A DNA stretch of 14,070 nucleotides from a virus. Taxonomy: Duplodnaviria; Heunggongvirae; Uroviricota; Caudoviricetes. Both the position numbers and the translations under genes were made by a program. How positions within the stretch are numbered: the stretch's first letter is position 1; each line of letters opens with the position of its first letter. Where the stretch lies: IMG/VR virus record IMGVR_UViG_2648501165_000006; one strand, given 5' to 3'. Under the pieces are notes generated by a model. The model ran no database searches. It was not told where the DNA came from and worked only from the letters and a program-made list of their open reading frames with translations. Positions 843 to 8,576 of the stretch are shown here, piece by piece.

Positions 843-3800
843 TGCCAGTTTATGCACAAGCTGAAGATCTTAATAACGGACTGATCCCGTCAGGTAACGT
901 TTTGCCGGAACAAACTGGGTTTGATGTTGCCCTTCCGGAAGGGGCTAATCCTGAGCCATTGCCACCTGAGCCTTCCGTATGGGGGGCTGCAATGCGACAG
1001 AACAATATTCTGTCTGGTTTTTTCCGCCCAGCCAGACAGTTTGAACCGGTCGAGGGTTATAACCCATATGCTGATAAAAATGAGTTGCACGGTTATGAAT
1101 ACTGGGGGGCGAAATTTGCAGATTCCCGATCGCCAGAGGAAACGGCGTGGATTAAGCAGCAGATAGATGATGAAAATGAAGACAGACGTTTATTGTCTGA
1201 TGCTGGCGTAGTTGGAACCCTTGCCAGTATTGCTGCGGGAATGGATCCGGTTACTGTTGCGTCAATGTTTATTCCCGGTGCTCAAGGAGGGGCACTGGCG
1301 CGTATTGGCTCACAGATTGCGATTGGTGCTGCCGGTACAGCATTAAGCGAGGTTGTACTGAATAATCAGCAAATAACACGCTCATGGGGTGAAAGTGCCG
1401 CTCACGTTGCAGCGGGTGCGATGATGAGCGGCGTGTTTGCCAGTGCTGGTGTTGCGCTTTCGCCATCCGTCCGGGCTGCAGCCACACGTGAGGTTGCTGA
1501 TGCTCTTGATAATATGAGCATTACATCAGCGACTGACAGGGCTGCCGCTTCGCTTTCCGATGGTGGTAGTGTTGGTGCTATGAAAATTGATACAGCGGCT
1601 CTGGATGATTTAACCCCTGTTTCCGGTGGGTGGGTTGGAAAGGCTGCATGGAAAGCAGGGAGCTATCTTACTCCTTTGACAAGGTTAATGGAGTCTCCGT
1701 CCAAGACGGTGCGAAAAACAGCGCTGGAGTTAGCCGAAAATAATTTCACCCTTAAAGGAAATGAAAGGGGGATTGAAACACCGGTAGCTGTAGAAACCCG
1801 TACACGTGGATGGCAGCGTGAAGAAGCTGCTGTTGTTGTCGGAAATAAACAGGCATACGCAAAGTATAAAGCTGATGGTGGTGACATGAGTTTTGATTCA
1901 TTTCGTCAGCAGGTTGGGAATGCTATGCGAAGCGGTGATGTGCATGCTAATCCTGTTGTTCAGGAAACGGCGCAGGCGATGCGAACTGTATTAAATCGGG
2001 TGAAAGTTGAAATGCAAAAGCTTGGTTTATTGCCGCCAGATGAAGAACTGAAAGCATTAGGCCAGGCAAGCTATTTCCCACGCATATATAAAGTTGGAAA
2101 AATAATCAGTGAACGCGATAAATTTCGACGTATTTTGGTTGACTGGTGGTCGAGAGGAAATAAAACACTGGATCCTGAGGATGCTGAAATTGCAGCGGAT
2201 ATCGTAATTAATAAAATTACTGGTGCTAAGGTTCCACAGGATTTTGTCAGCGTATTTTCTGTAAAAGCCGCAGGTAGTACGAAAGAAAGAACATTAAATG
2301 TTTCTGATAGTCTTATCAGGGATTATCTTGAAAGTGATGTGAATTACGTGCTGCAACGTCATATCCGTGAAGCGGCAGCAGAAATTGAGTTGACGAGAAC
2401 ATTTGGCAAACGAACTATGACTGAGCGTCTGCAATTAATTGAGGACGAATATGACAGTCTGTTACGGGAAGTGCCTGAAAAAATAAAGGCGAAATATGAC
2501 GAAAGTGTGGCAAATCTGAAAGCACGTTATGAGAGCAATGGTGAAGTTGTTCCTCAGGGTAAACTCGATTCATTAATGCGAAAGTACGAAAAGGAATTAC
2601 GGAAAGAACAGTCCAGACTTTCAAAATCAAGAGCAAATGATCTCAGAGACATAACAGCATTACGCGATCGTCTTGTTGGTACATATGGTATGCCTGATGA
2701 TCCGTCTTCGTTTTTTGTTCGTGCTGGCGCTTTTCTGCGGGATGTGAACTTCACGACCAAACTCGGTGGAATGACAGTATCAGCTATTCCAGATCTGGCC
2801 AGAGGGGTTATGGTTAATGGTTTCCGTAACACCATGAAAGGCTATGCTTCTCAGATATCCCAATCACCGGCATTTAAGGCCAGCAAAGAAGAGATGTTGA
2901 AGATGGGGATTGGATTGGAAGCTGTACTACATTCACGTTCTCGTGCAATTGGTGATCTTGTTGACAGTTCTTCCAGGACAACAGCAGTCGAAGCAGGAAT
3001 GGAGCGAATTACTGATGCCTTCGGCAAGCTGACACTCATGGATCGATTTAATGACATAAACAAATCCATGAACGGAATGCTCACGTCAGACGGTATTTTG
3101 TCTGGTGCGTTTTCTGCACGTCGCATGGCAAAACTCGGTATCAACGACAATATGGCTGCGCGTATTCGCAGTGAGTTCGAGAAACATGGTGAGGTAATTG
3201 ATGGATGGCACATTGGTAACTTTGATAAATGGGACGATCAGTACGTTGCCGGAGTATTCCAGTCAGCGGTTCTGAAAGACGTTAATAACACTATCATCAC
3301 CCCCGGTATTGGTGACACACCTTTATGGGCGAGTACTCCAATGGGGCGAACGATATTTCAGTTTAAATCATTCACAACGGCTTCATACAACCGTGCGCTA
3401 CTTGGTGGGTTACAGGAAGGAACTGCGCAATTTTATTATGGCACTGTATTTCAGATTGCTCTTGGCTCACTGGTCTATGCGCTAAAAGAAGCATCGAAAG
3501 GGAAAAATGTTGACTGGTCACCAGAGAAGCTGGTGCTTGAGGGTATAGATAGATCCGGTATTCTTGGGCCATTGATGGAATATAACAACATGGCTGAAAA
3601 GGCTACTGGTGGTGCTGTTGGGCTGGGGGCTTTATTTGGCACTGGCACACAGTCTAGGTATGCCAGTCGTGGATTCGTAGGATCTCTATTCGGACCGTCA
3701 TTTGGTCTTGCGGATAGCATCATTGATGTGACCGCAGGAGTGTTGAATGGTGATGCCGGTGATCGTATTGTGCATAATGTCCGAACCCTGATACCAGGCA

Positions 3801-3856
3801 ATAACCTGTTCTGGATTGCGCCACTAATAAACCAGGTGGATCCGGTGATGCGGTGA
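842..3856 (+). CDS. Large (1004 aa) phage internal virion / DNA-ejection (core) protein candidate
   Basis: Long ORF with a Gly/Ala-rich hydrophobic stretch (GAQGGALARIGSQIAIGAAGTALSEV...AAGAMMSGVFASAGVAL) and an extended charged coiled-coil region. It sits upstream of the immunity region and tailspike, as ejection proteins do in P22-like and epsilon15-like podoviruses. Function is inferred from size, composition and position only. Confidence 0.55.
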   Translation: MPVYAQAEDLNNGLIPSGNVLPEQTGFDVALPEGANPEPLPPEPSVWGAAMRQNNILSGFFRPARQFEPVEGYNPYADKNELHGYEYWGAKFADSRSPEETAWIKQQIDDENEDRRLLSDAGVVGTLASIAAGMDPVTVASMFIPGAQGGALARIGSQIAIGAAGTALSEVVLNNQQITRSWGESAAHVAAGAMMSGVFASAGVALSPSVRAAATREVADALDNMSITSATDRAAASLSDGGSVGAMKIDTAALDDLTPVSGGWVGKAAWKAGSYLTPLTRLMESPSKTVRKTALELAENNFTLKGNERGIETPVAVETRTRGWQREEAAVVVGNKQAYAKYKADGGDMSFDSFRQQVGNAMRSGDVHANPVVQETAQAMRTVLNRVKVEMQKLGLLPPDEELKALGQASYFPRIYKVGKIISERDKFRRILVDWWSRGNKTLDPEDAEIAADIVINKITGAKVPQDFVSVFSVKAAGSTKERTLNVSDSLIRDYLESDVNYVLQRHIREAAAEIELTRTFGKRTMTERLQLIEDEYDSLLREVPEKIKAKYDESVANLKARYESNGEVVPQGKLDSLMRKYEKELRKEQSRLSKSRANDLRDITALRDRLVGTYGMPDDPSSFFVRAGAFLRDVNFTTKLGGMTVSAIPDLARGVMVNGFRNTMKGYASQISQSPAFKASKEEMLKMGIGLEAVLHSRSRAIGDLVDSSSRTTAVEAGMERITDAFGKLTLMDRFNDINKSMNGMLTSDGILSGAFSARRMAKLGINDNMAARIRSEFEKHGEVIDGWHIGNFDKWDDQYVAGVFQSAVLKDVNNTIITPGIGDTPLWASTPMGRTIFQFKSFTTASYNRALLGGLQEGTAQFYYGTVFQIALGSLVYALKEASKGKNVDWSPEKLVLEGIDRSGILGPLMEYNNMAEKATGGAVGLGALFGTGTQSRYASRGFVGSLFGPSFGLADSIIDVTAGVLNGDAGDRIVHNVRTLIPGNNLFWIAPLINQVDPVMR

Positions 3857-3867
3857 GTTAAACGCCT

Positions 3868-4458
3868 TTAGCATGATTCAGGGGAAACCCCAATATTAAA
3901 TATGAGTGACTCTCCTGAATCAGCATAATAATGTAATATTATTGACTTACGTTGTTTTCTTGCTTCGTAGAATAAACGCTCTTGCGGCGATAATTTGTGA
4001 AAACTGCCGGATGCACAATATATGTTTTTTAACTTTTCGCTGGTTGCTTTTATTGTATCTTCTGAGATGTATTTTAGGTATTTATCCGTATAGATGTTGC
4101 TACTATAAGAAATTAATGTTTTGCTGTTGTTGTGATGTATTGTATTTTTATCGTTGAAGTCTGTATTTTTATTTACTGTCATTAGGTTTTTAATGATTAC
4201 ATGTAATGCAATAGTCTCCCCATCATCAATTCCATATTTGATGTCATAGTCAGTATATTTATTTGTTATACCGCTTCCTGATAGCGGCACTATGTACTCT
4301 GAGAAAAATGAGTTTGCCGCGTGACCATCAAGAGCAATAGCAGTTTTTTTGTGGTAAAAATAAAACAATATTGAGAGAGTCAAAATAATAGCGACGCCTA
4401 ATGCAACCTTTAATATAGATATGGTTTTCAAAATATCGCTCCTTGTTGTAACATACAT
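3868..4458 (-). CDS. Membrane-anchored hypothetical protein in an AT-rich moron (candidate superinfection-exclusion or defence effector)
   Basis: Visibly AT-rich ORF. It has one long N-terminal hydrophobic segment (ILKVALGVAIILTLSILFYFY) followed by a ~165-aa soluble domain with two Cys. The start is ambiguous: TTG at 4479 (ORF track), ATG at 4458, or TTG at 4431 preceded by AGGAG at 7-nt spacing. It lies immediately downstream of the RHH regulator gene on the same strand. Confidence 0.5.
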   Translation of the reverse strand: MYVTTRSDILKTISILKVALGVAIILTLSILFYFYHKKTAIALDGHAANSFFSEYIVPLSGSGITNKYTDYDIKYGIDDGETIALHVIIKNLMTVNKNTDFNDKNTIHHNNSKTLISYSSNIYTDKYLKYISEDTIKATSEKLKNIYCASGSFHKLSPQERLFYEARKQRKSIILHYYADSGESLIFNIGVSPESC

Positions 4459-4521
4459 CAGTAATGTGGCGTTTTTCAATTGTATTAAAGACGTGTAATA
4501 TGTACACGCCTTTTGTTCTTC

Positions 4522-4953
4522 CTATTCAGGTATTTCAATTCCAAAACCATCTGCATCCCATGAGTTTTCACAGATGATGTAACCTAGTTCATTGAGCTTA
4601 TTAAATGTTTTTTCAAAGATGATCTGGTAATCATTATCTGCAAGTGATTCCAGTTCAAGGTCATTAAGGTTTATATAAAAACTTGTATGTCCAAGTGTTA
4701 TTTTCTTATTGATTTCATTAAAAGTTCTTTTGAAAATAATATTTGATATTTCATGCCGTGCATTGTTTGCAATAATTTTTGCTTCATAAGCAGAAATTAC
4801 GTCATCTTCATGAATATCTTTCAGAAAGCTGGTGTCAAGACGTTGTACTATTTCAGCGTTCATTGAGCGCTTATTGGCTTTTGCAGAAATTTCTATTTTT
4901 TCTTTTACTTCAACGGGAAGTCTGATCCTTAGTTGTGGATCTTCTCTGCTCAT
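4522..4953 (-). CDS. Arc/Mnt-family ribbon-helix-helix transcriptional regulator with a ~90-aa C-terminal extension
   Basis: The N-terminus MSREDPQLRIRLPVEVKEKIEISAKANKRSMNAEIVQRL matches the Mnt/Arc RHH pattern (basic beta-strand, then helices, with the ...RSMN.E... motif). The likely start is ATG at 4953 with a GGTGA ribosome-binding site; the ORF-track start at 4983 is TTG. The gene is AT-rich. Confidence 0.6.
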   Translation of the reverse strand: MSREDPQLRIRLPVEVKEKIEISAKANKRSMNAEIVQRLDTSFLKDIHEDDVISAYEAKIIANNARHEISNIIFKRTFNEINKKITLGHTSFYINLNDLELESLADNDYQIIFEKTFNKLNELGYIICENSWDADGFGIEIPE

Positions 4954-4998
4954 GTTCTTCACCAAATATTGAGTTACTTGCAATGATTGAAGTATGCC

Positions 4999-5059
4999 TC
5001 ACCGTGTGCTTGACATCAATGACGCACGGTGTGACAATTGTTTTGCCCCACGGTGGGGC
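4999..5059. promoter_or_regulatory. Divergent immI-like control region: sigma70-like promoter (TTGACA 5010-5015, 17-nt spacer, GACAAT 5033-5038) overlapped by repeated CACCGTG / CACGGTG operator-like half-sites
   Basis: CACCGTG at 5000-5006 and its reverse complement CACGGTG at 5025-5031 flank the -35 element. A third copy sits inside the near-palindrome GCCCCACGGTGGGGC at 5045-5059, just upstream of the AAGGAG ribosome-binding site (5061-5066) of the Arc-like gene. Confidence 0.4.
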
Positions 5060-5073
5060 TAAGGAGATATGAA

Positions 5074-5241
5074 ATGCAAAAAGCAAAAGAGATGTGTCAA
5101 CGACGAGTTCGTTTTCCGGACGATGTGAAGTTAGCTATTGAAAGAAATGGCGAAAAAGAATGCCGAAAGTTCAATACAGAGATTATCTATCAGCTGAGGA
5201 AAGTGTATGGACTCACTGGTGAGAAGAATAGCGTGGCATAA
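5074..5241 (+). CDS. Arc-like small ribbon-helix-helix repressor (55 aa)
   Basis: ATG at 5074 is preceded by AAGGAG at 7-nt spacing. The product MQKAKEMCQRRVRFPDDVKLAIERNGEKECRKFNTEIIYQLRKVYG has the size and RHH pattern of phage P22 Arc. The ORF-track start at 5038 lacks a ribosome-binding site. Confidence 0.6.
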   Translation: MQKAKEMCQRRVRFPDDVKLAIERNGEKECRKFNTEIIYQLRKVYGLTGEKNSVA

Positions 5242-5247
5242 AACAGC

Positions 5248-5280
5248 GAAGCCCAACGGTGGCCAGACCGTCAGGGCTTC
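5248..5280 (-). terminator. Hairpin between the Arc-like and antirepressor genes, terminator-like on the minus strand (candidate sar-type antisense RNA terminator)
   Basis: 7-bp stem GAAGCCC / GGGCTTC with an internally structured loop. On the minus strand the hairpin is followed by a T-rich tract (TGTTTTAT); on the plus strand it is not. Confidence 0.35.
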
Positions 5281-5313
5281 AGTATCGTAAAACTACGTAT
5301 AGGAATTAACGAC

Positions 5314-6140
5314 ATGACGAGTATAGCAACAGCGCTATCTACTATCAACGTGCCATTCCACGGCGCAGAACTTTATGTTGTCAATCACAACGGAGAACCG
5401 TACACCCCAATGAAACCTATCGTTGAAGGCATGGGTATGGATTGGGCTTCACAGTTTACGAAAATGAAGCAGCGGTTTAAAACCTGCATTGTGAAAATCA
5501 CAATGCAGCTTCCTGGGGATGAACAGCGCCGTGAGATTATTTGTTTGGCACTTCGCAAACTTGCTGGCTGGTTGCAAACCATCAGCCCTAACAAAGTCCG
5601 CCCTGAAATCCGCGACAAGGTAATCCAGTATCAGGAAGAGTGTGACGATGTTCTCTACGAGTACTGGACTAAAGGCCATGTGGTTAACCCACGCAAAGCT
5701 AAAAAGGCGTTGCCGGGTAAAATAACCACTGAACAGCAGGAAGCCATTAAACAACTCGTCATGAGTCGCGGTCAGTCTCTGCCAAAAGAAAAACAGGCTA
5801 AGGCGATGATCACCATGTGGTCGTCACTGAAATCTCATTTTGGCTGTTCGTACAAAGAAATTGATGAAGATCAATTCGCCGAAGCGTTGTCTCTTGTTGC
5901 TCGGGTTCCGCTTGAAGGGGAGCATCTCCCTGCTGGATCTGCATCAGAGAATGATGAAGTGGCAGTCAAGATGTTAGATGCGCTTCGTGAGGCAATTAAA
6001 ACACAGACAAAATGTTATGGTTATCCGCTGAAGCCCGGCTACCGCAGTCTGATTCATTCGCCGTCTGGTGTTCTCGGCCTGACGGAGAACNNNNNNNNNN
6101 CCACGCGGAGTACATCAACGACAAGGCAGGGTTCTTCTGA
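5314..6140 (+). CDS. Antirepressor (Ant-like N-terminal domain plus KilA-C-like C-terminal domain), interrupted by an assembly gap
   Basis: The N-terminus MTSIATALSTINVPFHGAELYVVNHNGEPYTPMKPIVEGMGMDWASQF is antirepressor-like. After the N run, the frame ...HAEYINDKAGFF-stop (ending at 6138-6140) matches the C-terminus of the minus-strand antirepressor 7124..7810. The ORF-track extension to 6315 is a frame artefact of the N10 placeholder. Confidence 0.6.
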
Positions 6141-6164
6141 CAGAACGGCGGCACAGGGATGTGC
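6028..6164 (+). repeat. Inverted repeat copy A (antirepressor C-terminal module plus ~25 bp of 3' UTR), gapped
   Basis: 6028-6090 and 6101-6164 are near-identical to the reverse complement of 7101..7359, for example CTGAAGCCCGGCTACCGCAG...GGCCTGACGGAGAAC and CACGCGGAGTACATCAACGACAAGGC. Confidence 0.8.
6091..6100. other. Assembly gap (10 N placeholder) inside a repeated antirepressor C-terminal module
   Basis: A literal run of ten n characters. By comparison with the paralogous copy at 7101..7359, the true missing length is probably ~120-130 bp. Confidence 0.95.
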
Positions 6165-6190
6165 AAAACGGAACTATCGTGACATGTCAC

Positions 6191-6215
6191 AGGCCGCTTT
6201 CGCGGCCTTGTTTTT
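6191..6215 (+). terminator. Rho-independent terminator downstream of the antirepressor gene
   Basis: Stem AGGCCGC (6191-6197), loop TTTC, stem GCGGCCT (6202-6208), then TGTTTTT. Confidence 0.6.
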
Positions 6216-6255
6216 AACGAATGCCACCGCCGCCCGGGCGGGAATCCGCAGACAC

Positions 6256-6277
6256 AAAAAAGCCCGCAACGCGGGCT
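6256..6277 (-). terminator. Rho-independent terminator immediately after the 181-aa minus-strand gene
   Basis: On the minus strand: stem AGCCCGC, loop GTT, stem GCGGGCT, followed by T6 (the plus-strand A-run at 6256-6261). The hairpin overlaps the stop codon at 6277-6279. Confidence 0.6.
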
Positions 6278-6822
6278 TATTCCTTCCATTTATCAGAAAA
6301 AAGCTCTTCTTCTAAAGGCATTGGTTCTGTTTTTGTTTTCTCAAAGAATTGATAACTGATAGTGATTGCTTCCTCTTTAAACTCTTCTTGCTCAGTTATG
6401 TTGTGGGCATCTGCGTCAACAAAAAACATAACCAGCGCATCACGATTGTGATTTACCGAATAAACTAAAAAGCAATCACTTGTTGGTATGCATTTTACTT
6501 GCACAGACGCTATATTTTTCCATGCATCCCAAGATGATTTTTTACCAGTGTGTTTTTTATCACTATCTTCTGGAATATAGTCTTGGTTATCGACATGAGT
6601 ATGCCTGACATTTAGTTTAAGCATTTCTGTCGGACGAGCAAATGCAGCATCTTTACCAAGAGATGGATGGTATCCCGTTTTCCAATACTGGGTAAAGGCA
6701 TCAGATACTTTCTTCAGCTCAAGATCAGATGCACAAAGGGCCGAGAAATTTTGCGTATGCAATACTCGACCCTTATATCTGACAATTTGATTTTTATCAT
6801 TCTGCGACGCAGACGAACTCAT
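6277..6822 (-). CDS. Hypothetical 181-aa protein, candidate toxin or abortive-infection effector (possible YafO-like motifs)
   Basis: ATG at 6822 is preceded by AAGGA. The motifs ...EMLKLNVRHTHV... and ...CFLVYSVNHNRDALVMFFVDA... resemble, from memory, conserved blocks of YafO-family mRNA-interferase toxins; this is unverified. The gene is flanked by its own terminator and lies between convergent antirepressor genes. Confidence 0.5.
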   Translation of the reverse strand: MSSSASQNDKNQIVRYKGRVLHTQNFSALCASDLELKKVSDAFTQYWKTGYHPSLGKDAAFARPTEMLKLNVRHTHVDNQDYIPEDSDKKHTGKKSSWDAWKNIASVQVKCIPTSDCFLVYSVNHNRDALVMFFVDADAHNITEQEEFKEEAITISYQFFEKTKTEPMPLEEELFSDKWKE

Positions 6823-6976
6823 AATTTTCCTTATTGTTACGAGAATCAAAGAAAGCTCGGGATACGCGACTTGCGTGATCTTTTGTCATAGTAACTTTTA
6901 CGTACTCTACGCTTCCATTGAAAGAACGTCTTGCGGCAGCTTGCGCTCTACGCATCTGCAATTTTTCGTTTCGCAT
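6797..6976 (-). CDS. Small 59-aa ORF upstream of and overlapping the 181-aa gene (candidate antitoxin or regulator)
   Basis: ATG at 6976 is preceded by GAGG at ~7-nt spacing. The N-terminus is Arg-rich (MRNEKLQMRRAQAAARR...). It overlaps the downstream gene start by 26 nt in a different frame. It is absent from the ORF track, which appears to omit ORFs of this size (shortest listed is 60 aa). Confidence 0.35.
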   Translation of the reverse strand: MRNEKLQMRRAQAAARRSFNGSVEYVKVTMTKDHASRVSRAFFDSRNNKENYEFVCVAE

Positions 6977-7100
6977 GACATTACCTCATATCTCATAAGT
7001 TCATTACACGGATTAATAAAAATGAAACCAATCCGTTTACCCTTGAGGTAATAGTACGCTATTCACCCACAGTCTGCAATCTGTACAGAATTATTTAAAG

Positions 7101-7359
7101 GCACATCCCTGTGCCGCCGCCCGTCAGAAGAACCCAGCCTTGTCGTTGATGTACTCCGCGTGAGTCTGGATATCACGCAGGCATTTGCTCACACCGACGA
7201 TGTAGCAGAACATGGTGGTCAGCTCCGCCGCCGCGCCCGATACATCGTGCCCGTCGTCCTGTAACTGGTTAAGCAGATTCATCAGCAGTGAGTTCTCCGT
7301 CAGGCCGAGAACACCAGACGGAGAATGAATCAGGCTGCGGTAGCCGGGCTTCAGTGGGG
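7101..7359 (-). repeat. Inverted repeat copy B (C-terminal module of the Bro-N antirepressor plus 3' UTR)
   Basis: The reverse complement matches copy A with a few mismatches. The repeat ends at GCACATCCCTGTGCCGCC (7101-7118). Confidence 0.8.
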
Positions 7360-7810
7360 CACTGTAGGTTTTGTTCTCTATCTTCATTGCCTGCATCACT
7401 GCTGATGCTGTGGCGTTGGCTACCTGGTCGGCAACCATCTTTATGCGTTCTTCCTGCGGGAGCGAGTTTTTAATGTAACTTCCGGTGCGGCGGATCTGAG
7501 GAAGAACCTCACCTGTAACCCATTTACGAAAGCGGTAGGGGATAGTGCCTGGTGTCACCGCATCGCGGCAGCGGAGGATCAGTGTGTAGAGGCCTGACTC
7601 GTTGATAATATTGGTTTCGCCTTGACGGCCTAAGTTAAATTTAGCCCTTTCATCATCATCAAGAGATTTTATTGACATAGTGGGGTTTGTCAGTTGAAGA
7701 GCTTTAATAACGTCTTTGGCAACAAACCAAGGATTTCCATCAATAACAATGGCTCGAATGGTTGCTTCTGATTCAAAATGAAAAACAGATGGGGTTACGT
7801 TAGCAGTCAT
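7124..7810 (-). CDS. Antirepressor with Bro-N-type N-terminal domain and KilA-C-like C-terminal domain
   Basis: From ATG at 7810 (ribosome-binding site AAGGTG) the N-terminus reads MTANVTPSVFHFESEATIRAIVIDGNPWFVAKDVIKALQL, the Bro-N signature. The C-terminal ~85 aa are near-identical to the gapped antirepressor at 5314..6140. The ORF-track extension to 7963 (MCKAHLFYGG...) is judged non-coding. Confidence 0.65.
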   Translation of the reverse strand: MTANVTPSVFHFESEATIRAIVIDGNPWFVAKDVIKALQLTNPTMSIKSLDDDERAKFNLGRQGETNIINESGLYTLILRCRDAVTPGTIPYRFRKWVTGEVLPQIRRTGSYIKNSLPQEERIKMVADQVANATASAVMQAMKIENKTYSAPLKPGYRSLIHSPSGVLGLTENSLLMNLLNQLQDDGHDVSGAAAELTTMFCYIVGVSKCLRDIQTHAEYINDKAGFF

Positions 7811-7963
7811 AGTGATCACCTTTGTAGTTAGGTTAATCACCACTACCGACGCCAATCGGTTGGTGGTGAACTGTGCAGGGTTGGCGTAACCGGCTACAAA
7901 GGACCCGGCGCACCTTTCGGTGCCCCCACACAGCCCACCATAGAATAGGTGCGCTTTACACAT

Positions 7964-7983
7964 AAAAAAAACCGCTTATGCGG
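7964..7983 (-). terminator. Weak terminator-like element (short GC stem followed by T8 on the minus strand)
   Basis: Plus strand reads AAAAAAAA then CCGC-TTAT-GCGG. On the minus strand the 4-bp GC stem is followed by eight T. The stem is short, so the call is weak. Confidence 0.25.
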
Positions 7984-8123
7984 CATATGTGCCTCTGTAG
8001 TAACTCGGGACGCCAATCCCGGCACTGGATTTTGCCAGTGCCCGATTACTATGGCACAAGAGGAGTGCGATGTAAATTTACCTCAAAGGTAAATATAAGC
8101 ACTCCACTTGGTAATTGCAAACC

Positions 8124-8381
8124 TTATCTGGTTTGCTTTCGTAATTGTTCGGCACAATAGTCGAGATGTGTTTGCAGATCCTGCATAGACATCTGTGAGC
8201 TGGTGACGTAGTTAATCAGTGCAGTCAGTTCGGCAAGTGGGCCATCGACATTAAATCCATCCTTATCGAGATCCCGGAGTAATTTCATCAAGTGCGATCC
8301 CTCCACCAGTGATCTGACGCCTCCCGGCGTGTGAATCCTTTCGGTAAATCCCTCTTCCAGTGGATAGTGATACTGCTGCAT
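8124..8381 (-). CDS. Stand-alone KilA-C-like (antirepressor C-terminal) domain protein, ~85 aa
   Basis: ATG at 8381 is preceded by GGAG. The sequence ...HTPGGVRSLVEGSHLMKLLRDLDKDGFNVDGPLAELTALINYVTSSQMSMQDLQTHLDY aligns by eye with the C-terminal modules of both antirepressors (...HSPSGVLGLTENSLLMNLLNQLQDDGHDVSGAAAELTTMFCYIVGVSKCLRDIQTHAEY). Confidence 0.55.
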   Translation of the reverse strand: MQQYHYPLEEGFTERIHTPGGVRSLVEGSHLMKLLRDLDKDGFNVDGPLAELTALINYVTSSQMSMQDLQTHLDYCAEQLRKQTR

Positions 8382-8576
8382 CTTATCTTCTCCATGCAAT
8401 AACTGTATAAATATACAGTAGCAAATAATTTGTTTGCTATCCAGCACGTTTTGCGAATCACCTGAAAGGTAATATCTGTTCGTATTTATGGGTTATCTAT
8501 CCATATATGGTTTTTAAGGTAATAGAATAACCGGATATGCGGCGCAACGGGTGCTGCGACTATCTGGAGATTTAAC

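Follow-up and report, generated by a model that had tools for sequence, protein, structure and literature searches.

Toxin-antitoxin (TA) genes are commonplace cargo in prophages. Among the RelE-like RNases of Escherichia coli, YafO is to our knowledge the least understood. The YafO protein of strain K-12 is an mRNA interferase that cuts translated transcripts and arrests growth, from which cells are rescued by its upstream partner YafN (PMC2814082); the ribosome dependence of the cleavage is disputed (PMC8546651; PMC11980606). Our literature search returned no paper that links YafO with Uetakevirus phages or with phage TL-2011b, or that gives the YafO family an anti-phage role, and no solved YafO structure turned up in the PDB searches made here.

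Here we describe a two-gene cassette in a stretch of phage DNA of 14,070 nucleotides (IMG/VR record IMGVR_UViG_2648501165_000006; hereafter the window), which encodes a YafO-like protein of 181 amino acids and, upstream of it, a protein of 59 amino acids. We consider it likely that the pair constitutes a type II TA-like moron, in which a YafO-type RNase with a RelE fold is combined with a translationally coupled neutraliser, the neutralisation and the biological role being what we propose. The toxin family was already known through automatic annotation, whereas the partner family, the long-form architecture of the toxin and the missed call of the small gene are new.

As in the YafN-YafO pair of K-12, the gene for the putative antitoxin comes first and the two genes abut or overlap, implying coupling. 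The toxin cores are homologous along the whole of YafO and have the motifs GKDA..RP, VRHxHV and DAH in common. The phage toxin, however, is 181 residues long as compared to 132 for YafO, with an extra N-terminus predicted to be disordered, a Trp-rich helix insertion and a conserved acidic tail. Furthermore, its partner is a basic orphan protein of 59 residues, whereas YafN is a Phd/YefM-type protein of 97 residues, and the pair is phage cargo with a phage-type promoter, unlike the SOS dinB-yafNOP operon of K-12. Differences are also seen for the ribosome-dependent mRNA interferases HigB2, HigB, RelE, YoeB and YafQ (RelE/ParE, BECR fold), with which the phage toxin has a sequence identity of 3-17% and which it exceeds by about 75 residues. 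It is also net acidic where these toxins are basic, and its partner is unrelated to HigA, RelB and YefM.

The TA and abortive-infection morons of prophages, such as those in the tin/old hotspot of P2 and gop-beta-cII of P4 (PMC9122126), resemble the cassette in being small, autonomous units of low GC content that occupy a variable slot and have their own promoter and terminator. A distant relative of the phage toxin is even located inside the P2 gpA-gpQ hotspot itself. In contrast to the defence morons of P2 and P4, the phage YafO-like family is without a match to a curated defence model: in PADLOC-DB v2, neither protein matches such a model at E <= 1.

Prophage setting of the cassette

The right part of the window is 99.8-100% identical to the E. 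coli UTAK-1 prophage, and the window is about 98% identical to Escherichia phage TL-2011b. The annotated neighbours of the cassette encode injection and structural proteins, an Arc-family protein, an antirepressor, a BRO-N protein, a tailspike, holins and an endolysin, followed by the host genes yfgI and yfgH. These neighbours and the similarity to phiV10 identify the source as a Uetakevirus (epsilon15/phiV10-like) prophage of E. coli that occupies the guaA-proximal attachment site (PMC9782041).

The cassette is located in the immunity (immI)-like region of the phage, between two convergent antirepressor genes. The gene for the BRO-N domain antirepressor-type protein (7124-7810, minus strand; identified from annotation and as an ORF) lies upstream of the cassette and is co-directional with it, and ant (5314-6140, plus strand), which codes for a phage antirepressor N-terminal domain protein, is convergent with it. 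The coordinates of ant come from the annotation of a matching genome and were mapped across a gap, a run of 10 N at 6091-6100 that stands for 129 nt of the 3' region of the gene. An ORF of 333 amino acids at 5314-6315 in the mechanical ORF list is an artefact because it was read through this run; ant ends at 6140.

The sequence-only reading of this DNA had pointed to inverted repeats that bracket the cassette. These are real, with a left arm at 5990-6164 that is broken by the N run and a right arm at 7101-7392, and each arm corresponds to the 3' end of one flanking gene (ant on the left, Bro-N on the right) and continues for about 25 nt past the stop codon. The repeat arises because the two convergent antirepressor genes have homologous C-terminal domains, so that their 3' ends are inverted copies. 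The arms are 83-100% identical in the window; in L001, a genome free of the gap, they match over 258 nt with 95% identity.

The GC content of the cassette is 36-40%, as compared to 46-55% in the flanks. The cassette was found in 61 of 5,426 complete E. coli genomes (about 1%) and, among deposited phage genomes, in TL-2011b only, with a distant cousin in phage EC.W1-9. What the ant/Bro-N slot holds varies between prophages, some of which carry other cargo there, and these differences agree with the earlier suggestion that this region collects cargo genes.

Two such slots may be mentioned here. In E. coli 2015C-4498, the cargo (positions 4939-5994 of the locus) consists of a frameshifted DUF2335 gene, an ORF of 108 amino acids and an ORF of 53 amino acids. 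In TL-2011b, and likewise in many E. coli prophages, an additional gene for a "transmembrane anchored protein" of 53 amino acids (6114-6275 of the TL-2011b locus) adjoins the YafO cassette.

Architecture of the two-gene unit

Both genes of the cassette are on the minus strand. The small ORF (6797-6976; ATG at 6976, TGA at 6799-6797) encodes the 59-aa protein, a putative cognate antitoxin or neutraliser, and is preceded by a GAGG Shine-Dalgarno sequence at 6984-6987 with a spacer of 7 nt; the block ATGAGG..TGTCATG at its start is invariant across eight diverged loci. The ORF for the putative YafO-family toxin (6277-6822; ATG at 6822, stop at 6277) has an AAGGA Shine-Dalgarno sequence at 6828-6832, within the small ORF and five bases before the ATG, and the AAGG part of it is conserved in related loci. 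Both Shine-Dalgarno elements were read from the sequence. The ORFs overlap by 26 nt of dual-coding sequence (6797-6822, minus strand), in which the C-terminus of the small protein, NYEFVCVAE, and its stop codon are encoded over the N-terminus of the toxin, MSSSASQN. Such an overlap implies that translation of the two genes would be coupled.

Downstream of the toxin gene, an intrinsic terminator at 6250-6278 on the minus strand (called by the terminator scan at 6278-6260) is formed by an 8-bp stem with six GC pairs, a 3-nt loop and a T run, and its stem starts on the final base of the toxin stop codon. At the other end, just past the Bro-N stop codon, a weak hairpin with the structure GGCAC-N6-GTGCC-TTT and a 5-bp stem was read from the sequence at 7097-7115 on the minus strand; the scan did not call it, and its counterpart in locus L030 has a compensatory GGCGC/GCGCC stem. 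It is possible that this hairpin is the terminator of the Bro-N gene and insulates the cassette. The first reading of the DNA had given both ORFs, their overlap and a good GAGG ribosome-binding site as we find them, but of the terminators that it placed on both sides of the pair, the downstream one is clear and the upstream one is a weak hairpin.

The segment at 6250-7079 on the minus strand has the anatomy of a moron, that is, an independently transcribed and self-contained cargo unit, here with two genes. We base this on the presence of its own predicted promoter, ribosome-binding sites and terminator, on its low GC content and sparse occurrence, and on the use of the same slot by other cargo.

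An enlarged protein of the YafO family

The 181-aa protein matches the Pfam family PF13957 (YafO_toxin) with 26.3 bits, just above the gathering cut-off of 25, at E 8e-6 and over positions 3-92 of the 101-position profile, and the identical protein is named "type II toxin-antitoxin system YafO family toxin" by PGAP. Since the Pfam margin is thin, independent homology tests were made. A profile search over 1.84 billion cluster representatives retrieved only 61 relatives, and the resulting alignment contains 63 sequences, of which 43 match PF13957 (best E 1.4e-26). A scan of species-representative genomes found no relatives, and loci were therefore taken from viral contigs and from look-ups of the exact protein.

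Aligned with K-12 YafO by hhalign, the 63-sequence profile gave a probability of 97% (E 8.8e-11) over YafO residues 2-129; a narrow profile of 22 sequences gave a weak local match only. Likewise, AlphaFold2 with the 63-sequence alignment produced a confident model (pLDDT 92) with the RelE/HigB (BECR) toxin fold, and a model based on the 22 close homologues only (pLDDT 54) was discarded. Foldseek searches with the model against the PDB and BFVD gave nothing significant, sequence searches of the PDB with profiles of both cassette proteins returned chance-level matches only, and NCBIfam provided no useful match. We take its family and fold to be close to certain: the 181-aa protein belongs to the YafO family as an enlarged, long-form representative with the RelE/HigB fold, and is as such a putative endoribonuclease toxin.

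The core that is homologous to YafO corresponds to residues 19-160. The predicted disordered N-terminus comprises residues 1-18, the Trp-rich helix insertion residues 80-112 approximately, and the conserved acidic C-terminal tail, PMPLEEELFSDKW, extends 20 residues beyond YafO and is placed with high confidence by the AlphaFold2 model. With this extension, insertion and tail, the protein departs from the single-domain size of about 130 residues that characterizes the YafO family. The resemblance to YafO that the sequence-only reading had noted is thus upheld by Pfam, hhalign and the fold model; the peptide blocks it quoted are present, and it correctly described a protein some 50 residues longer than YafO with an acidic tail. 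The Pfam check that it proposed for both proteins gave the match above for the 181-aa protein and no significant one for the 59-aa protein. The module is less uncharacterised than it supposed with regard to the toxin, which already carries the PGAP label.

No substitution of G56, H76 or H140 is seen in any of the 63 relatives, whether short or long, which argues for an active enzyme, and we predict that the 181-aa protein is catalytically active. The toxin gene is under strong purifying selection, with dN/dS values of 0.04-0.12. We also considered the possibility that the RelE fold of the 181-aa protein is catalytically dead or has been put to another use, such as in a structural or regulatory phage protein, and that the small ORF is co-transcribed with it but unrelated. 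Its acidic pI, its extra insertion and tail and its marginal Pfam score would fit such a scenario, as would the PHROG families, which are annotated as "unknown function." However, the two histidines and the glycine are common to the short canonical YafO-like proteins, the purifying selection is strong, the one frameshifted toxin lies beside an intact partner and the toxin was never seen without a small upstream ORF. We therefore regard this possibility as highly improbable.

A small orphan partner

The small ORF is a real gene, because selection is seen only in its own frame and because it is present in all related viral loci. Its dN/dS is 0.17-0.36 in this frame, with pN close to pS in the other two frames, across five lineages. 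The ORF has no CDS call in the 100%-identical RefSeq genome L001, and the product is listed as "hypothetical protein gp45" in TL-2011b. As a consequence of its absence from the PGAP annotation, the "YafO family toxin" there looks like an orphan.

The 59-aa protein matches phrog_6685 from end to end (E 3e-45). A search of 5.8 billion clustered proteins yielded 35 relatives, none of which (0/35) has a Pfam domain or an informative name. The best Pfam match of the protein itself has an E value of 0.041, which is below the cut-offs, and a comparison with YafN by hhalign gave a probability of 0.15%, indicating that the two are unrelated. There was also no similarity to PDB sequences, to known antitoxins or to DNA-binding families and domains. 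On the basis of these comparisons, the protein is neither of the YafN/Phd type nor a member of any known antitoxin family, but represents an orphan family. It is basic, with a pI of 10, and nearly all of its positive charge is found within residues 1-20, an Arg-rich stretch (RRAQAAARR).

For the same genome pairs, synonymous sites have diverged less within the small ORF (pS 0.19-0.50) than within the toxin gene (0.45-0.77). A structured RNA was considered as the cause of this low divergence and rejected, as the RNA of the leader and small ORF folds no better than shuffled sequences (z -1.48). The mean nucleotide identity between lineages is 97% in the 26-nt overlap, as compared to 75-86% in the rest of the operon. 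The overlap is thus conserved although the first 18 residues of the toxin are predicted to be disordered, and the simplest explanation is a constraint on the C-terminus of the small protein. We suggest that the 59-aa protein is probably the antitoxin or neutraliser of the 181-aa toxin.

Conservation of the pair

The overlapping small ORF is present and intact upstream of the toxin gene in all 46 relatives from viral contigs, including those with toxins of only 36-44% identity, in which the small protein retains the strand-helix core and the NEF...AE end. Seven more distant relatives of the toxin have a small Pfam-less ORF (55-139 amino acids) directly upstream or overlapping in every case examined. 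The contexts of these distant relatives include a siphovirus tail region, a site after a lysis cassette, a P2-like phage, phage EC.W1-9 and the neighbourhood of a YafO-like protein with the canonical size of 132 residues. In the P2-like phage, a toxin relative of 27% identity is located between the portal and gpA genes; the gpA-gpQ interval of P2 is a published defence hotspot (PMC9122126). The antitoxin-first arrangement of the two genes, which was noticed in the first reading, is thus kept throughout the family.

In one locus (L044, 4001-4538), a deletion of 8 nt frameshifts the toxin, of which 112 residues are left, and the small ORF is intact. Of the 46 loci, all have an intact partner and 45 an intact toxin, and the combination of a broken partner with an intact toxin was not observed (0/46). 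In its gene organization, the cassette agrees with type II TA systems, with adjacent, co-directional small genes, one of them homologous to a known toxin, and a conserved pairing.

In phage EC.W1-9 (locus L059, 2059-2974), the toxin relative is 31% identical and preceded by an annotated ORF of 139 amino acids. Only the last 35 residues or so of this ORF resemble the core of the small partner (MSVEKSHAISRRMF), which suggests that the true start codon may lie further downstream than annotated.

A pair of this kind could also serve addiction or stabilisation only, or be selfish cargo, with no anti-phage function, and would then persist because loss of the prophage region releases a stable toxin. 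This alternative, which differs from the TA-like moron favoured here in biological role only, is compatible with the generic TA architecture and with the lack of a match to curated defence families, and the canonical YafNO is a chromosomal stress-induced TA system with no known defence role (PMC2814082). Integrated prophages, however, gain little from post-segregational killing, and the pair is found in slots for exclusion genes, both in the ant/Bro slot with its alternative cargo and in the P2 gpA-gpQ hotspot (PMC9122126). We therefore think it very unlikely that the cassette serves addiction alone.

Charge and regulation

The partner proteins for which a pI was calculated (eight, all basic) have values of 9.2-11.3, whereas the long-form YafO-like proteins have values of 4.5-6.7 (loci including L046-L056). 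This charge polarity is opposite to that of textbook RelE-type pairs, and it is odd for an RNase said to act on ribosomes.

A putative promoter precedes the small ORF at 7037-7079 on the minus strand, with a -35 element TTGCAG at 7079-7074, a spacer of 17 nt and a -10 element TACTAT at 7056-7051. It is followed by an operator-like palindrome, TTACC-N5-GGTAA (7037-7051, minus strand), which abuts the -10 element and is placed at about +1. The consensus promoter scan made no call because the -35 element matches at only 3/6 positions. Nevertheless, the promoter-like element is conserved in eight diverged loci, as TTGCAG or TTGACG, 17 nt, and TACTAT or TAATAT, and then the invariant palindrome.

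The window contains three copies of the palindrome, as compared to 0.37 expected, and all of them abut the -10 element of leftward promoter-like sites. Of the two copies outside the cassette, one precedes the Bro-N leader (8078-8092), placed as in the cassette with respect to the -10 element, and the other, with one mismatch, is located upstream of a gene for an 85-aa protein (8458-8472). Phage phiV10, which has no such cassette, carries the palindrome as well, and so does E. coli 2015C-4498, where it precedes the different two-gene cargo (the DUF2335 pair) in the same ant/Bro slot. The palindrome is absent from the relatives of the cassette in other phage types. The idea that the palindrome is the antitoxin's own operator is weakened by its occurrence in phiV10 and before unrelated cargo, and its presence at such non-cassette sites makes classical autoregulation unlikely. 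The palindrome is more likely a regulatory site of the Uetakevirus phages that the cassette adopted, and as a phage feature it is likely the operator of a Uetakevirus regulator. It is thus probably a phage factor, and not the antitoxin itself, that controls the cassette.

The reversed charge polarity and the regulation borrowed from the phage leave room for a rival reading of the cassette as an RNase switch. One hypothesis is that the genes are a phage-timed host-shutoff or regulatory pair, rather than a TA or defence module expressed in the lysogen, which would be switched together with the antirepressor genes via the shared palindrome and promoter. The YafO-like RNase would then remodel host or phage mRNA during induction or infection, and the small basic protein would be an RNA- or DNA-binding cofactor or a timer instead of an antitoxin that sequesters the toxin. 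In line with this hypothesis, the Bro-N leader and the 85-aa gene are preceded by the same layout of -35, -10 and palindrome, which is also seen in the cassette-less phiV10, the small protein has its charge in residues 1-20 and lacks an antitoxin-type domain, and the large protein is acidic. On the other hand, the pair occurs without the palindrome in other phage types, in tail and lysis regions and in the P2 hotspot, as is typical of autonomous morons, and the strict pairing and the broken toxin beside an intact partner fit TA logic. We consider phage-timed shutoff distinctly unlikely.

A broader and more speculative interpretation, which we view as unlikely, is that the long-form acidic YafO-like proteins and their always basic, Arg-rich partners are a distinct two-component family with an altered logic of charge and role. 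Instead of simply sequestering the toxin, the small protein might then act as a sensor or be directed at RNA or the ribosome, for example, and the acidic tail of the RNase might be autoinhibitory. In the Uetakevirus phages, the family would have been wired to the antirepressor promoters via a shared phage operator, forming an RNase switch timed by induction or infection.

Proposed function and significance

For the TA-like moron that we favour, we hypothesize the following course of events. Transcription would start at the promoter whose palindrome near +1 is common to the promoters of the neighbouring antirepressor genes. The 59-aa protein would bind and neutralise the toxin, probably via its strand-helix core VKVTMTKxHAxRVSRAF and its C-terminus NYEFVCVAE. 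Free 181-aa toxin would cut mRNA, so that translation and growth stop. The likely benefit to the prophage would be the exclusion of other phages by abortive infection or the retention of the prophage itself.

If confirmed, the cassette would provide a new antitoxin family for YafO-type toxins and a long-form YafO subfamily as cargo of Enterobacterales phages. The analysis also exposes a gene that is systematically missed, the 59-aa ORF. The practical payoff is modest: about 1% of the complete E. coli genomes carry a candidate for a prophage exclusion module. Furthermore, the pair is a compact one for asking how a basic partner controls an acidic RNase with the RelE fold.

Other observations in the antirepressor region

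The inverted repeat raised the idea that the cassette is an invertible segment, which we rejected because the inverted order is absent from the E. coli complete-genome-assembly records (0/1,144). In a single draft contig (L006, IMG/VR UViG_2740892230_000001, 2755-4885), the cassette is inverted between the repeat arms relative to arc and ant. This order is probably a misassembly, since the contig ends inside the repeat and no such order is found in the complete-genome-assembly records.

The 85-aa gene (8124-8381, minus strand) is a free-standing copy of the antirepressor C-terminal domain that aligns with Bro-N residues 147-224 at 40% identity (E 1e-15). The antirepressor C-terminal domain is therefore present three times within 2.5 kb.

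Finally, Rfam matches at the gathering level were obtained for the sar RNA just upstream of the ant ATG (5245-5312, minus strand) and for the C4 antisense RNA and isrK in the Bro-N leader (7859-7945 and 7965-8041, both minus strand). RNA regulators of the P22-type and P1-type immI regions are therefore adjacent within one prophage.
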